Assembly (NCBI RefSeq): GCF_009931435.1 | Contig: NZ_CP043414.1 | Length of the DNA: 64,000 nucleotides | Origin: Escherichia coli | GTDB lineage: Bacteria; Pseudomonadota; Gammaproteobacteria; Enterobacterales; Enterobacteriaceae | Direction: 5' to 3' (one strand) | Shown here: positions 14,763-21,200 of the stretch, piece after piece | Numbering within the stretch: position 1 is the first letter of the stretch | Layout of the letters: every line of letters starts with the position of its first letter | The notes under the pieces: generated by a model | Databases searched by the model: none | What the model saw: the letters and a program-made list of their open reading frames with translations, nothing else | What the model was told of the DNA's origin: nothing | Position numbers and translations under genes: made by a program

Positions 14763-16289
14763 TTAGAAATAAATCTCACCATCAACCATATATTTGAGAG
14801 CACTTATCGCCTGCTGGGCGGATATTACTTTCATTAAAGGATAGTGTTTAAAAACAATGCCATTCATAAAATAGATATCACAGGTTTTATTATCCGTATT
14901 AATTATGATTTTTTCGAATGTTTTATAGGCAAGTGTACGGCATAACTCTCGTCCATTTTTACTGGTTAAGTCAATAGCATAAAAATCACTGAATGAATTT
15001 ACACCTTTACTCTTCAAAGTTTTCAATGATACCGAAGCCCTTCGTAATTCCTTATCTAATAGTCTTATTTTCTCTGCTATAGCGGTAACTTCAGGCGCGA
15101 CAGACAATGCAACGATTAAATTATTAATTTTCATCTGAAGCTCAATAATTTTTAACTCTAAAGTTTCATTAGCATCTTTCTTGTTTTCAACTGGTTGAAT
15201 TTTGCTACAATTAAAAAGCAATTCATTAATGATATTATAATCAACCAAATCTCTTTTTATTGATGGCCTGTCACATCGATGTAATCTTCTCATCGGACAA
15301 ACATAATAGCCATGCAAACTTCCAGATACCGCATGAACAATCATGGTATTACCACAAGCCTCACACTTCATAACTGTTCGAAGTAGATTTATTAGCATAG
15401 GATTCTTGCTACTATTGCTAATACCAAAAGGTGCCAACCGAATTTCCTGTACAGCGTAAAACAAATCATCTGATATGACTCTGGGATAATAGCCAGCGAT
15501 TTCACTTATCCCTTTCCCTCTTGCACGATATGAAGGTACGCAAATACCTATCAGAGCTTTATTCGCTAATAATTTTTCAATTACAGAAGGTCCCCATGCA
15601 CTTTCTTTTCCTGAGAAATTCTTTACAGCATGATCATTTAAATACTTGGCTATTGCATTCAATGAGCGCCTTTCCATCCTGAGTTTAAAAATTAGCTCAA
15701 TAGTTTTCACCCTGTCTGGGTCTGGAACAAAAGCCGTTCTTTTGTCATCTAAGGAGAGCCATCTCGGATAAGACGCCGTCATAATCGTACCTGATTCCAG
15801 TGCATCCTGCCGTTTTTTCTTCCATGATAATTTAACCCGACTTGACTTTATCTCGCTTTCTTCATTTGCCCTTTGTGCTATAAGTATGGCTTTTATTAAT
15901 GAATATGGCTCATTCAAAGAGTCAATATTATAGACTGTATTGTCGCAAAGAGTTATAACATCAATACCGTGATTCAAAATCAATTTCAGACGTTCAATCG
16001 CTTCACCGACTTTTTCTCTTGAAAGTCTGTCCAGACTTTCAACTAACAATGTAGTTCCTGGCAATATATAACCATGCTCTATAGCATCTAAAAATTCCGA
16101 AAAAGCTCCTGATTGTGCATGCTTTCCTTTGAATGCACTTAATCCTAAATCTTCATATGTTATGGTATCAAGATAATAATCACTATTTACCTTTAACCAT
16201 TCAGCAATAAGTCTTCTCTGTCGGTTTAATGAGTCGCCAGACATCTGACCTGGTGATGAAAATCGCATATATGCTATGGCTTTTTTCAT
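14763..16289 (-). CDS. ybcK: Large serine recombinase (resolvase/invertase N-terminal domain; YbcK-like)
   Basis: 508 aa; N-terminal catalytic serine motif (AIAYMRFSSPGQ); large C-terminal domain with Cys cluster. Confidence 0.85.
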   Translation of the reverse strand: MKKAIAYMRFSSPGQMSGDSLNRQRRLIAEWLKVNSDYYLDTITYEDLGLSAFKGKHAQSGAFSEFLDAIEHGYILPGTTLLVESLDRLSREKVGEAIERLKLILNHGIDVITLCDNTVYNIDSLNEPYSLIKAILIAQRANEESEIKSSRVKLSWKKKRQDALESGTIMTASYPRWLSLDDKRTAFVPDPDRVKTIELIFKLRMERRSLNAIAKYLNDHAVKNFSGKESAWGPSVIEKLLANKALIGICVPSYRARGKGISEIAGYYPRVISDDLFYAVQEIRLAPFGISNSSKNPMLINLLRTVMKCEACGNTMIVHAVSGSLHGYYVCPMRRLHRCDRPSIKRDLVDYNIINELLFNCSKIQPVENKKDANETLELKIIELQMKINNLIVALSVAPEVTAIAEKIRLLDKELRRASVSLKTLKSKGVNSFSDFYAIDLTSKNGRELCRTLAYKTFEKIIINTDNKTCDIYFMNGIVFKHYPLMKVISAQQAISALKYMVDGEIYF

Positions 16290-16543
16290 GGTGACACCTG
16301 CTAACGTATGCTTTTATAAACCTTAGTGGTGGGATATAATTTTTGTTTATTTTTTATTTAAAAAGACAATTAAGGTCACATTATCTTGAATATACAACAA
16401 TAATCGTATTGCAATTTTCTTACGCCATAATCTTGAAAGCACAAAAGAATACATAAAAAATAAAGACATTAACAAAAAGCATAAAACGAGGCTCATATAA
16501 ATATAAGAGCCTCCATATTTTAGTCGTTTAGAAACAAATTATT

Positions 16544-16876
16544 TTAATGTGGTGTGCTTCGTGACAATAAATTAATAATCAACACACCGGCACAAATCAA
16601 CATCATGCCTATAATGGCTGGCAGGTCCAGCCGTTGGCCGAAAAATCCCCATGACAGTAAGCTAATCAGGACAATACCGACTCCTGACCAGATAGCATAA
16701 GCAATCCCTGTAGGAATATAAGCCAGCGTCTGAGCTAATAACCAGAATGATGCACAATAACAAATAATTGTACCAACAGATGGCCATAACCGTGTAAAAC
16801 CTTCTGAAAACTTCATTAAGGTTGTACCAATGACCTCTGCAAGTATTGCACCACCAAGATAAATATAAGGGTTCAT
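16544..16876 (-). CDS. emrE: SMR-family multidrug efflux transporter EmrE
   Basis: 110 aa from MNPYIYLGGAILAEVIGTTLMKFSEGF, matches recalled EmrE. Confidence 0.95.
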   Translation of the reverse strand: MNPYIYLGGAILAEVIGTTLMKFSEGFTRLWPSVGTIICYCASFWLLAQTLAYIPTGIAYAIWSGVGIVLISLLSWGFFGQRLDLPAIIGMMLICAGVLIINLLSRSTPH

Positions 16877-16943
16877 AGCATATTCTTTCCTGTTCAAACT
16901 GGAGAGAATTGTACTACAGTTTGAACTCAACTCACCTGTTTCA

Positions 16944-17246
16944 TCATTGTGTTCCCATTGATGTTCTTTTATATACCCTCAATACCCGTTTCATCGCGGC
17001 ACTCTGGCGACACTCCTTAAAAATCAGATTCGTGCTCACCTTTCCTTCCCATTCTTCTCTGGTAGCGAACCGGTAATACACCGTTCGCCAGACCTTACCA
17101 TCAACGACCAGGATTCCTGCCCGCGCCATTTTAGCCGCAGCCTGATTTATGCTGGTTACGGTTGCGCCTGTTACCGCGGCAACGTCCTGTGCACAGAAGC
17201 TCTTATGCGTCCCCAGGTAATGAATAATTGCCTCTTTGCCCGTCAT
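16944..17246 (-). CDS. ren: Ren protein
   Basis: 100 aa, MTGKEAIIHYLGTH... matches lambda Ren. Confidence 0.85.
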   Translation of the reverse strand: MTGKEAIIHYLGTHKSFCAQDVAAVTGATVTSINQAAAKMARAGILVVDGKVWRTVYYRFATREEWEGKVSTNLIFKECRQSAAMKRVLRVYKRTSMGTQ

Positions 17247-17944
17247 ACACTTGCTCCTTTCAGTCCGAACTTAGCTTTAATTTCTGCGATCTTCGCCAGA
17301 GCCTGTGCACGATTTAGAGGTCTACCGCCCATAACAGGAAGTTGTTTTACTGGTTCAGGTATCGTCTCACCACGGTTAATTCGCGCTGTCATACAGGTCA
17401 GTTCATCGGCAGCCTTGCGCCGTAATTCCGCGTCAGCCAGCGCATTGGCCCGCATGTTCTGGTACAAGTTGGTAACCAACCAGTAATGCGCGTTCGATTT
17501 CCACGGATAAGACTCTGCATCCGGATACAGGCCACGCTTCCGGCAATACTCGTAAACCATATCAACCAGCTCGCTGACGTTTGGCAGCCCGGCGTTAACA
17601 GATGCTTCTTCCCGGCACCAGGCGACAAACTGCCCGGGTGATGGCAGGAATGGTCGATTCTGCCGACGGGCTACGCGCATTCCAGCGTTAACCTGTTCCA
17701 TTGTGGTGATCCCGTTTTCCCGGAAAGCCAGAACCCACTGGCGGCGGATTTCGTTCAGTTCATTCTGGTCACGGTTAGCCAGGCTAGCCGGGAAAGTTGC
17801 CAGTAACTGGCTGAACACACCGTTGATGATCTGCGCTACCTGCTGTACCTGCGGCTTTTCGTCGTACTGTTCCGGCATATTGTTGGCGATCCGGCGCATC
17901 TGCTCACGGTCAAAGTTAACCATCTGTGCGGCGATGTTTTTCAT
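17243..17944 (-). CDS. P: Replication protein P (DnaB helicase loader)
   Basis: 233 aa, lambda P-like. Confidence 0.9.
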   Translation of the reverse strand: MKNIAAQMVNFDREQMRRIANNMPEQYDEKPQVQQVAQIINGVFSQLLATFPASLANRDQNELNEIRRQWVLAFRENGITTMEQVNAGMRVARRQNRPFLPSPGQFVAWCREEASVNAGLPNVSELVDMVYEYCRKRGLYPDAESYPWKSNAHYWLVTNLYQNMRANALADAELRRKAADELTCMTARINRGETIPEPVKQLPVMGGRPLNRAQALAKIAEIKAKFGLKGASV

Positions 17945-18870
17945 AAATCCACCCCGTAAATCCAGTCAGTGTTCGTCAGGTCGAGTTTTGGTTTGCCGGC
18001 TGTCACGCCAGCCTGTTGCTTGTTTCGGTTGATTTCGAGCTGGGTCCACTTGTCGCGGAGTTTGGCCGGACTCAGCACGTTACCGGACCAGAAGTTGTCC
18101 TGGCATGCCCAGCGGAACAGCACGCACATGTCGCGGTGGTTACGTCCGTCACGTTCACGCATCAGGCGGATATCGTTAGCCCACCCTGCAAAATTCGGTT
18201 TTCTGGCTGATGGCGCGATGGTCTTCACCATGTCAAACATCCACTCTGCGGCGGTCAGGTCTTCTGCTGTCCCCCACTTGCTGCCACTCTGAATTGCAGC
18301 ATCCGGTTTCACCACAGGAAGGTCGTTTTCTGGCTGGTCAGAGGATTCGCCAGAATTCTCGGACGAAAAAGGTTTTATATTGTCTTTTGTTAGTTTGTCT
18401 TTTGTGTTTACCTGATTCGGGTAAACGCCTTTACCTGATTTGGGTAAACTTTTCTTACCTGATTCAGGTAAATTTACCTCTTTCAGGTAAACTTTATTTT
18501 TCTTACCTGATTCGGGTAATGTTGACCATTCACTGACCACATTATTAATGCCGATATTTCGCCCGCTCTGAATAAGAATCCCACGCTTTACCAGAACGCT
18601 TTTTGCAGCAGAACACTTGTGCGGCAATATCCCGGTCAATTCGGAAAGTTGCTCGTTGCTCACCCAATCCAGTCTTTTATTAAAGCCATATGTTTTGCGC
18701 ATGACAGCCAGGAAGACCAGAAGCTGGTGCTGTGTTAATCCGGCCAGCATCACAGCTTCCAGCAACTCATTTGCAATGCGCGTATAACCATCATCGAGAT
18801 CTGCCACGCGCGGCTCCTTTTGTGCCGCATCCGGCACTGGAAAATTGAATATCTCAGCAGTGTTTGCCAT
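17941..18870 (-). CDS. O: Replication initiator O (contains ori iterons)
   Basis: Lambda O-like N-terminus; start MANTAEIFNF preceded by GGGAGG SD (track ORF starts earlier at 18960); iterons inside the gene. Confidence 0.85.
   Translation of the reverse strand: MANTAEIFNFPVPDAAQKEPRVADLDDGYTRIANELLEAVMLAGLTQHQLLVFLAVMRKTYGFNKRLDWVSNEQLSELTGILPHKCSAAKSVLVKRGILIQSGRNIGINNVVSEWSTLPESGKKNKVYLKEVNLPESGKKSLPKSGKGVYPNQVNTKDKLTKDNIKPFSSENSGESSDQPENDLPVVKPDAAIQSGSKWGTAEDLTAAEWMFDMVKTIAPSARKPNFAGWANDIRLMRERDGRNHRDMCVLFRWACQDNFWSGNVLSPAKLRDKWTQLEINRNKQQAGVTAGKPKLDLTNTDWIYGVDL
18372..18520. repeat. Origin of replication: five 18-bp iterons (ttacctgattcgggtaaa and variants) plus adjacent AT-rich tract, inside O
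   Basis: Iterons at about 18408-18425, 18431-18448, 18455-18472, 18474-18491, 18503-18520; AT-rich 18372-18406. Confidence 0.85.
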
Positions 18871-18956
18871 AATTCCTCCCGCAATGAGTGTGTTACGATT
18901 TGCACCTGAAAGTCGGTTCTGTTCCCGCAGACCGACTTTCGCCATTTCTGAACCTA

Positions 18957-19496
18957 TCATATTGCCCCCAGCATGGTGGTCACCATCGCCATTAATGGAC
19001 CAGCCAGATCCGGGTCCACACGAAACATCGACACAATACCTTCACTCATTTCCTTCAGTTTCTGGTGGCGTGGTGCGTTGAGAATGACAGCCTGTTTTGC
19101 CTCACTGAGTTCCTTTTCCATTTCAGCCAACCGAGTCATGAAGCTATCCTGCTCAACCAGGTAACCGCGATATTCCAGCGGTAGTACCGCCAGAATTGCC
19201 GGGGTCAGTTCACGCACGTTATTTCGGTATTTTTCAGAATCGAATTTGTTATCGAGGAAGCGGAACAGCTTCTGGCGTGCACGGCTGACATCATCAGGGA
19301 AATCGATGGTGCCGTCGCCCTGCTCCCGATACTCATTCACAATGAGTGCGGCAACGACATCCTGATTATCTACAGCCGACCAGGCGCGGACGGCATCACG
19401 GATTTTTTCGTGGCCTGGAGCTTGTTTTGTTTGAGAACGATTTATCACCGCAGTCGGAATAAATCCGCTAGTCTGTTGGTATGTAAGTGGTTGCAT
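18957..19496 (-). CDS. Early regulatory protein in the cII position (YdaT-like)
   Basis: 179 aa ORF between the cro-like gene and O. Confidence 0.6.
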   Translation of the reverse strand: MQPLTYQQTSGFIPTAVINRSQTKQAPGHEKIRDAVRAWSAVDNQDVVAALIVNEYREQGDGTIDFPDDVSRARQKLFRFLDNKFDSEKYRNNVRELTPAILAVLPLEYRGYLVEQDSFMTRLAEMEKELSEAKQAVILNAPRHQKLKEMSEGIVSMFRVDPDLAGPLMAMVTTMLGAI

Positions 19497-19565
19497 AATT
19501 GACTCCTTTAGTTTGAATTGACTGTTAAGTTGATTGCTTATTGTTAAAGAGCGTGAAATGGAAAT

Positions 19566-19796
19566 TTAAGCTGCGTTCTTTTCGGTGTGTGGAAACAACT
19601 TCGGAAGATCCGGGCGAATCTGGTATGCCTTCACAACTCCACCAGTAGCCGTAACAATGCTGCCGACATGTTCAGGGGATACCTTTGCTTTGTTGTGAAG
19701 CCACTTATAGACGGCCTGCTGTGAAACTTCGCAGGCATCGCCTAGTTTCTTTTGTGAACCAACGATATTGATCGCTGTTTTGATTGCTGGGTTCAT
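19566..19796 (-). CDS. cro: Cro-like HTH regulator (YdaS/Cro family)
   Basis: 76 aa, divergent from the cI gene across the operator region. Confidence 0.7.
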   Translation of the reverse strand: MNPAIKTAINIVGSQKKLGDACEVSQQAVYKWLHNKAKVSPEHVGSIVTATGGVVKAYQIRPDLPKLFPHTEKNAA

Positions 19797-19900
19797 AACA
19801 ACCTCCGTGGTTAATCCGAATCAAGATTAAAACTATGGTTGTTTTTAGTCAACAACCATTTTCGTTTGATGAAATAAAACCTTGGTTGTACATTTGATCT
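19797..19900. promoter_or_regulatory. Immunity-region divergent promoter/operator (OR-like); 9-bp-arm palindrome atggttgtt-N7-aacaaccat at 19835-19859
   Basis: Palindrome and repeated ACAACC/GGTTGT half-sites between divergent cro-like and cI genes. Confidence 0.6.
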
Positions 19901-20590
19901 ATGAAAACAACACTCTCAGAAAGACTTAAAGAAGCCAGATTAGCGCGAGGCCTTACACAAAAGGCGCTTGGGGATTTGGTCGGGGTTAGCCAGGCTGCTA
20001 TTCAGAAAATCGAAACAGGGAAAGCTAACCAAACAACTAAAATCGTGGAGATCGCGAACGCTTTGGGTGTACGCGCAGAATGGTTATCTTCTGGCGTTGG
20101 AAATATGTCAGACAGTACAGTGCAACCAATACAATCAACTGTCAGCCATTCCAAATACTTCAAAATTGACGTTCTTGATATAGAAGTCAGTGCCGGGCCA
20201 GGTGTAATCAACCGTGAGTTTGTAGAAGTTCTACGCTCGGTTGAGTACTCGTTTGACGATGCTCGTCACATGTTCGATGGCAGGAAGGCGGAAAATATCC
20301 GCATCATTAACGTGCGAGGTGACAGCATGTCAGGGACGATCGAACCAGGTGACCTGCTGTTCGTTGATATCACTGTTAAATCTTTCGACGGTGATGGCAT
20401 CTATGCGTTTCTGTACGACGACACTGCCCATGTAAAACGTCTTCAAATGATGAAGGATAAGCTGCTGGTTATCTCTGATAACAAGAGCTACTCGCCGTGG
20501 GACCCGATCGAGAAAGACGAGATGAACCGGGTGTTCATATTCGGTAAGGTCATTGGAAGCATGCCGCAGACGTACAGGAAGCATGGTTAA
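19901..20590 (+). CDS. cI: CI-type prophage repressor (XRE HTH plus S24 LexA-like autopeptidase domain)
   Basis: 229 aa; N-terminal HTH; C-terminal GDSMSGTIEPGDLLFVD peptidase motif. Confidence 0.85.
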   Translation: MKTTLSERLKEARLARGLTQKALGDLVGVSQAAIQKIETGKANQTTKIVEIANALGVRAEWLSSGVGNMSDSTVQPIQSTVSHSKYFKIDVLDIEVSAGPGVINREFVEVLRSVEYSFDDARHMFDGRKAENIRIINVRGDSMSGTIEPGDLLFVDITVKSFDGDGIYAFLYDDTAHVKRLQMMKDKLLVISDNKSYSPWDPIEKDEMNRVFIFGKVIGSMPQTYRKHG

Positions 20591-20819
20591 TTTATCTACG
20601 ACTTAAGGGAGCGAAGGTTAAGGTTTATACCACTCGGATTAGATATTGCACTAAATTCTCTATAAGAACGCCAAATCTGTTTGCATATTTCAGTAAATAT
20701 TCTCGTTGTTAGCTGAGATTTGTTGCTACTGTCAGCAAAATGTCTCCCTATCTCGTAGCGGTTTTTATTTCGAATCATTATGTTAAGATGTTTCTGATTA
20801 TAATGAATGGAAACATAAA

Positions 20820-21200
20820 ATGAGAAAAATCCTAATCGCTGCCATGATGGCATCTGTATTGGCTGGGTGTGCTTCTTCAGGCAACCAGCAACTCAAAAAT
20901 GAAACTGAAATTAGTGTCCAGTCTAAACTTCAGGAAGGTAAAACAACCAAGAATGAGGTTAAATCTTACTTTGGTTCTCCTGATGCTGTTTCATATACTG
21001 ACAGTGGAAAGGAGATCTGGAAGTACGCCTTTGCAAAAGTAAAAGTTAATGGCACCACTTTTATTCCATTCTATGGATTATTCCATAACGGAACGAACGG
21101 TACGAAAAAAGAACTTACTATTCTTTTTAACGATGACACGATTAAGAAATACACAATGTCAGAAACCCAAATAAACTCGAAATCAGGTTGGGCTGACTGA
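20820..21200 (+). CDS. Lipoprotein of unknown function encoded downstream of cI (rexAB position)
   Basis: 126 aa; signal peptide with lipobox LAGC; followed by a terminator. Confidence 0.75.
   Translation: MRKILIAAMMASVLAGCASSGNQQLKNETEISVQSKLQEGKTTKNEVKSYFGSPDAVSYTDSGKEIWKYAFAKVKVNGTTFIPFYGLFHNGTNGTKKELTILFNDDTIKKYTMSETQINSKSGWAD

Follow-up and report, generated by a model that had tools for sequence, protein, structure and literature searches.

A five-iteron array inside gene O, very probably the replication origin of a DLP12/82-like lambdoid prophage of Escherichia coli

Lambdoid origins and the prophage that carries the array

In phages lambda, 434 and 21, the replication origin lies inside gene O, between the N- and C-terminal domains of the initiator, and comprises palindromic 18-bp iterons and an AT-rich region, with P as the helicase loader. 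The lambda-type origins of 434 and 21 each show four, in line with the number that a first-pass annotation of the DNA studied here had given for lambda. Stx phages of the 933W type have lambda-type iterons and the same four-iteron core, with two extra copies on the side away from the AT-rich box. In Stx phages, the four AT-proximal iterons alone were bound efficiently, and the extra two were still needed for efficient replication (PMC7466680). The ori of P22, in gene 18, has four iterons whose half-sites are separated by five bases (N5), and gp18 is partnered by the DnaB-type helicase gp12, not by lambda P.

Here we analyse a 64-kb stretch of an E. coli genome (64,000 nucleotides; hereafter the window), in which the first-pass annotation had noticed ori iterons of an O-type initiator. 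That assignment was borne out on every testable point: gene, palindromes, AT box, geometry and P gene. The array very probably constitutes the theta replication origin of an intact DLP12/82-like lambdoid prophage, and would follow the lambda plan with an initiator and iteron specificity of its own. As a kind of feature it is an ordinary, textbook lambdoid origin design; its iteron class differs from those of lambda/434/21, phi80, P22 and SEN34.

The lambdoid prophage in the window is complete, of DLP12 type and situated at argU/intD; it runs from intD through the head genes, in the order int, bet/exo/gam, cI/cro, a YdaT-domain "cII", O, P, ren, emrE, ybcK, ybcN, ninE, rusA, quuD, lysis and head genes. 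The gene directly upstream of O (18957-19496, minus strand) encodes a YdaT-domain protein (PF06254, E = 4e-30); it is labelled cII in related phage records and is not a homologue of lambda CII. In this respect the locus differs from lambda, as it does in that an Rfam scan of 16500-21000 detected no oop-type RNA, so regulatory details may differ from those of lambda. Just downstream of ren, at 14763-16930 (minus strand), lie emrE (an SMR multidrug efflux gene) and ybcK (a 508-aa serine recombinase), cargo in the early-right operon region that has the same placement in DLP12 and in phage Perceval. A small lipoprotein ORF at 20820-21200 (plus strand), beside the cI-type repressor gene and annotated as BamE-like in a matching RefSeq genome, is a candidate moron of the immunity region.

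The array, the AT-rich box and the O protein

The features on which the analysis rests are as follows.

17941-18960, minus strand: ORF containing the array; Pfam Phage_rep_O (PF04492), E = 4e-34, at residues 51-145 of the 339-aa ORF
17941-18870, minus strand: gene O, replication initiator, 309 aa from the ATG at 18870, with the origin in mid-gene
18517-18792, minus strand: folded N-terminal domain of O, a winged helix (residues 27-118, 309-aa form) that presumably recognises the iterons
18503-18519, minus strand: iteron 1 (O-sense order), TTACCCGAATCAGGTAA; codon phase 0, LPESGK
18474-18490, minus strand: iteron 2, TTACCTGAAAGAGGTAA; codon phase 2, VYLKEVN
18455-18471, minus strand: iteron 3, TTACCTGAATCAGGTAA, a perfect 8+1+8 palindrome; codon phase 0, LPESGK
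18431-18447, minus strand: iteron 4, TTACCCAAATCAGGTAA; codon phase 0, LPKSGK
18408-18424, minus strand: iteron 5, TTACCCGAATCAGGTAA; codon phase 2, VYPNQVN
about 18366-18407, minus strand: AT-rich box, the presumed DNA-unwinding element; in O sense, ACACAAAAGACAAACTAACAAAAGACAATATAAAACCTTTTT
17941-18365, minus strand: C-terminal half of O, the presumed P-interacting domain, with 94% DNA identity to 434/lambda (aligned stretch 17941-18417)
17243-17944, minus strand: gene P, lambda-type DnaB helicase loader; Pfam Phage_lambda_P, E = 2e-61

The array consists of five TTACCTGATTCRGGTAA palindromes at 18408-18519 (plus-strand numbering) with the core TTACC-N7-GGTAA. Five repeats beside an AT-rich tract had been proposed inside the O gene, and this is where they lie, within the Phage_rep_O ORF, at codons 148-185 of its 339-aa form. 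The inverted-repeat character attributed to them also stands, whereas the attributed length of 18 bp does not: the core measures 17 bp, and some copies extend to 19 bp (TTTACC...GGTAAA). The perfect form of the iteron is TTACCTGAaTCAGGTAA. Start-to-start spacing is 23, 24, 19 and 29 bp on the plus strand in ascending coordinates. With up to three mismatches allowed, the pattern matched these five sites alone in the 64 kb. Because each palindrome matches on both strands, the five sites count as ten strand-hits where 0.22 are expected, a total that no shuffle out of 100 attained.

The copies differ in position and in quality. Iteron 1 is an extra copy, 29 bp from iteron 2 and the most distant from the AT box. 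Iteron 2, the first of the four core iterons, has the most divergent centre of the five. Iteron 5 touches the AT-rich box directly, with no gap before ACACAAAAGACA, such that the box follows immediately downstream in O sense; the homology to lambda/434 ends inside this iteron. GC content is 27-40% over 18360-18520 (about 0.33 in the tract) and 50-65% in the flanks.

The AT box holds two direct copies of ACAAAAGACAA. It is kept in the origins of lambda, P22, SEN34 and the Klebsiella and Providencia phages, and in every compared origin but that of phi80 the last iteron abuts a conserved box, (A)CACAAAAGACA...ACAAAAGACAAT. The DNA of the box, including its two ACAAAAGACAA repeats, is kept in O classes whose proteins share only 41-56% identity, and in origins with different loaders (lambda P, DnaB-type and DnaC-type). 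This conservation across O classes and loaders suggests, from sequence comparison, that the box has a sequence-specific role beyond mere AT-richness.

Gene P lies directly downstream of O, and both genes are intact. Databases carry O in a 309-aa and a 339-aa form (start at 18960). A GGAGG Shine-Dalgarno sequence lies 5 nt before the ATG at 18870, and the 309-aa start aligns with those of lambda (MTNTAKILNF) and the Klebsiella phages (MANTAEVINF); the 339-aa annotation probably includes 30 codons too many. AlphaFold modelling of residues 1-166 of O gave a confidently predicted core of winged-helix topology at residues 27-118, in which a beta-hairpin wing follows three helices. A fold search against solved structures gave weak matches only (E of about 2e-3, TM of about 0.3), all of them winged-helix domains of dimeric palindrome-binding regulators such as CRP/FNR and MarR, and a sequence search of PDB structures found no solved O structure. 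Residues 119-166, which are encoded by the iterons and the AT box, have pLDDT <50 and apparently form a disordered linker between the two O domains. Such a location would explain the double use of this DNA as coding sequence and as a DNA site.

The steps of initiation are modelled here on lambda, whereas anatomy, geometry, conservation, mosaic boundaries and the pairing of N-terminal domains with iterons are observed directly. By analogy with lambda, we infer binding, unwinding and initiation in the following order. Dimers of the winged-helix N-terminal domain of O would bind each TTACC-N7-GGTAA palindrome; the bound array would form an O-some that strains and opens the adjoining AT-rich box; and the lambda-like C-terminal domain of O would recruit P-DnaB, whereby the host helicase would be loaded. 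Searchable literature yielded no binding, footprint or origin-mapping data for the TTACC-N7-GGTAA class.

Array geometry and selection on the DNA

We compared the layout of the array with those of other origins, reading each on the O sense strand and giving spacing from start to start in bp.

This window, Klebsiella GZ7 and phi8.2, and E. coli 2024CK: 5 iterons; 29, 19, 24, 23
Lambda-type (434, 21): 4 iterons; 20, 24, 23
Stx AU6 (933W-type): 6 iterons; 20, 19, 20, 24, 23
P22: 4 iterons; 20, 24, 23
Providencia PSTNGR2lys: 4 iterons; 20, 24, 23
SEN34: at least 3 iterons; 24, 23
phi80: 4 iterons; 21, 21, 21

Aligned in this way, the window origin is a conserved four-iteron lambdoid core plus one extra copy distal to the AT box. 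The core spacing is 19/24/23 here and 20/24/23 in lambda/434/21, and the last iteron abuts ACACAAAAGACA in both. The extra iteron corresponds to an insertion of 9-10 residues in the O protein alignment. It lies on the same side as the extra copies of the Stx phages, with the differences that it is single and of another iteron type. By this analogy, the distal fifth iteron is probably accessory, and the two additional copies of the Stx phages are its plausible counterparts.

Since the array is coding sequence, we considered whether the repeats are instead a peptide repeat, made of LPESGKK units in a flexible O linker and kept by selection on the protein, with no role as a DNA site. The translation does contain LPESGK, LPESGK and LPKSGK, the array-encoded region of O is predicted to be disordered, and copy number in Salmonella moves in steps of eight codons. 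However, the matching peptide repeats that the first-pass annotation had reported are confined to these three phase-0 copies; two of the five lie in the other reading frame and encode the unrelated peptides VYLKEVN and VYPNQVN. Every unit is moreover a DNA palindrome, and other O classes have a palindromic array at the equivalent place that encodes quite different peptides.

A comparison with Klebsiella phage GZ7, the N-terminal half of whose O has about 80% protein identity to that of the window, and whose iterons have gene coordinates equal to the window's, bears on the same question. The iteron arms (TTACC / GGTAA) are identical at 49 of 50 positions (98%), whereas identity is 77% in upstream coding DNA (Fisher p = 1e-4) and just 59% in the inter-iteron spacers, which are coding too (p = 2e-5). 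Third-codon positions are kept at 26 of 27 sites (96%) inside iterons and at 56% upstream (p = 3e-5). The conservation of arms and third positions, the use of two reading frames and the dyad symmetry therefore argue for selection on the DNA; in terms of sequence, the comparison shows that selection on the array works at that level and not on the peptide repeat. We reject the peptide-repeat explanation on the reading-frame and codon-position evidence, and consider it extremely improbable.

Iteron class, distribution and relation to phage 82

With the array read as a DNA site, we asked to which O/iteron class it belongs. Identities of the O N-terminal region to that of the window, and the associated iterons, are as follows.

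Related coliphages: 98%; iterons identical to the window's
Klebsiella phages: about 80%; TTACC-N7-GGTAA class
P22 and the Providencia phage: 54-55%; TTACC-N5-GGTAA
SEN34: 52%; TTAGC-N7-GCTAA
Lambda and 434: 41% (residues 1-166); TCCCTC-N6-GAGGGA
phi80: 38%; TTCCCG-N4-CGGGAA

Each O N-terminal class is thus paired with its own iteron type, the pairing holding class by class as the first-pass annotation had proposed to check, and, to judge from these alignments, the N-terminal domain and the iterons recombine as one specificity module, in keeping with the classical view. This module occurs with different C-termini and loaders, lambda P in the window and a DnaC-like ATPase in Klebsiella phages. 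Homology of high identity to lambda/434 (94%) is limited to 17941-18417, that is, to the C-terminal half of O and the AT box; this half of O and gene P are lambda-type. The iteron class, the 29/19/24/23 layout and the AT box recur in Klebsiella phages GZ7 and ST11-VIM1phi8.2 and in Salmonella prophages, with O N-terminal halves 73-82% identical to that of the window. The two Klebsiella phages have other O C-termini and a DnaC-like ATPase loader, not lambda P; the Salmonella prophages of this N-terminal class differ in the C-terminal domain, and Salmonella variants have 6 or 7 iterons through 24-bp duplications.

Several known classes do not fit. The lambda class (consensus ATCCCTCAAAACGAGGGA; lambda, 434, 21, Stx) has TCCCTC-N6-GAGGGA iterons where the window has TTACC-N7-GGTAA and one extra distal copy; N-terminal identity is 41%, and homology stops at the last iteron. 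Phages 21 and 434 do not match, both carrying a lambda-type four-iteron ori. The phi80 gp15 class (TTCCCGAAAACGGGAA, regular 21-bp spacing) differs in sequence and spacing, with 38% N-terminal identity. The P22 gene-18 class (TTTACC-N5-GGTAAA) does not fit either, the half-sites of the window being 2 bp wider in all five copies and N-terminal identity being 54%. The proposed alignment with lambda, 21 and phi80 ori regions gave an iteron sequence that differs from all three.

The first-pass annotation had suggested an O specificity distinct from that of lambda because the array has five imperfect copies with variable spacing. The suggestion itself is supported by the iteron sequence and by the 41% N-terminal identity, and not by either of the grounds then offered. 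Within this one class, E. coli and Klebsiella have 5 iterons but Salmonella has 6 or 7, and Stx phages have 6 of lambda type; the 19/24/23 spacing, for its part, is close to that found in lambda, 21, P22 and the Providencia phage (20/24/23). The comparison of origins shows that iteron sequence marks the putative specificity class, and that iteron number does not. A specificity distinct from lambda's is thereby supported for this O and its iterons.

P22 gp18 is among the closest relatives outside the class, and the P22 ori is the closest classic system by N-terminal identity (54%). The half-site bases TTACC/GGTAA are the same in the P22 and Providencia iterons as in the window, and the AT box and the spacing geometry (20/24/23) are alike, as would be expected if this O and gp18 recognised each other's iterons, such that the specificity were not distinct and the array belonged to the P22 ori class. 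We consider this unlikely. The half-sites are 2 bp wider here (N7 versus N5), so for a dimer both distance and helical phase change; the difference is fixed in all members examined of each class; and N-terminal identity is just 54%. We therefore retain a TTACC-N7-GGTAA class separate from that of P22.

Of 5,426 complete E. coli genomes, 2,412 (~44%) carry the array, O157:H7 strains among them; in 1,780 records, identity to it is 99% or more. Among full-length sampled hits, all but one equal the query in the bases spanned. The O gene is about 98% identical, with identical iterons, in at least 15 sequenced phages; matching coliphages include Perceval, 4A7, Lambda_4C10, 1W, 3W, several PhiR phages, Turner and IdasGreatGrand, and several of them list E. 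coli C or K-12 MG1655 as host. None of the matching records inspected annotates the iterons or the AT box. The TTACC-N7-GGTAA class reaches Salmonella, Klebsiella and Scandinavium.

Because the origin is coding, gains and losses keep O intact only in multiples of 3 bp (24, 48). Salmonella enterica prophages reach 6 or 7 iterons by tandem in-frame 24-bp duplications, with the peptide LPESGKKS repeated. The six-iteron form is common, its O protein being indexed in 878 blocks of the assembly collection; in the seven-iteron example, O and P are truncated. Rare variants, E. coli DS566 (NZ_CP092534) and strain S1-KEN-07-A, have the array minus 23 bp; in DS566, four iterons are left, the frame is shifted, and O is annotated as a frameshifted pseudogene. 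The O of Escherichia phage D2 (OM475427) is of the window type for about the first 112 codons (339-codon form) and then of the lambda type, with lambda iterons. The two parts are joined out of frame, and the record annotates them as two CDS. Either defective recombination or an artefact of assembly would account for phage D2 O. We had considered it as a natural domain swap that might locate the specificity determinant and rejected it, an out-of-frame hybrid being uninformative.

DLP12 is defective in E. coli K-12, and the neighbours of the array resemble DLP12. The origin might then be a dead relic in a defective prophage, with the right anatomy and its function lost, and decayed versions do exist, namely DS566 with its 23-bp deletion and frameshifted O and the Salmonella genome with truncated O and P. 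However, O and P are intact in the window, the prophage has all modules from int to head genes, and sequenced phages with ~98% identical O genes, among them Perceval and PhiR30_1, have exactly this array. A relic is thus very unlikely, and we favour an origin in an intact prophage.

The nin/rusA region of the window is 97% identical to a phage 82 record, X92588, a nin/rus fragment without gene O. We found no O or ori sequence of phage 82 in nucleotide and protein searches of the phage collection, among neighbouring accessions, among cluster and homologue source names or in the literature, and no source name links the O protein of the window to phage 82. In the 1979 comparisons of Moore et al. 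and of Grosschedl and Hobom, the phage 82 ori reportedly had five repeats. Because the nin region is 82-like and phage 82 reportedly has five repeats, the window origin may well be the classic phage 82 (rep82) origin. The iteron sequence occurs in no indexed paper. If it is not the phage 82 origin, TTACC-N7-GGTAA would represent an experimentally uncharacterised O/iteron class and a very common lambdoid module of E. coli, a possibility that we raise tentatively. Such a class would differ from that of P22 essentially by the 2-bp wider separation of its half-sites, and would offer a natural system for studying how a winged-helix initiator dimer re-tunes half-site spacing.

The four-iteron core geometry is common to several O classes. 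In practice, the findings can be used for annotation of the iterons and AT box, for correction of the O gene model and for typing, and rep type could serve as a predictor of which of the many E. coli lambdoid prophages, those of O157:H7 strains with this array included, are incompatible in replication or exclude one another.
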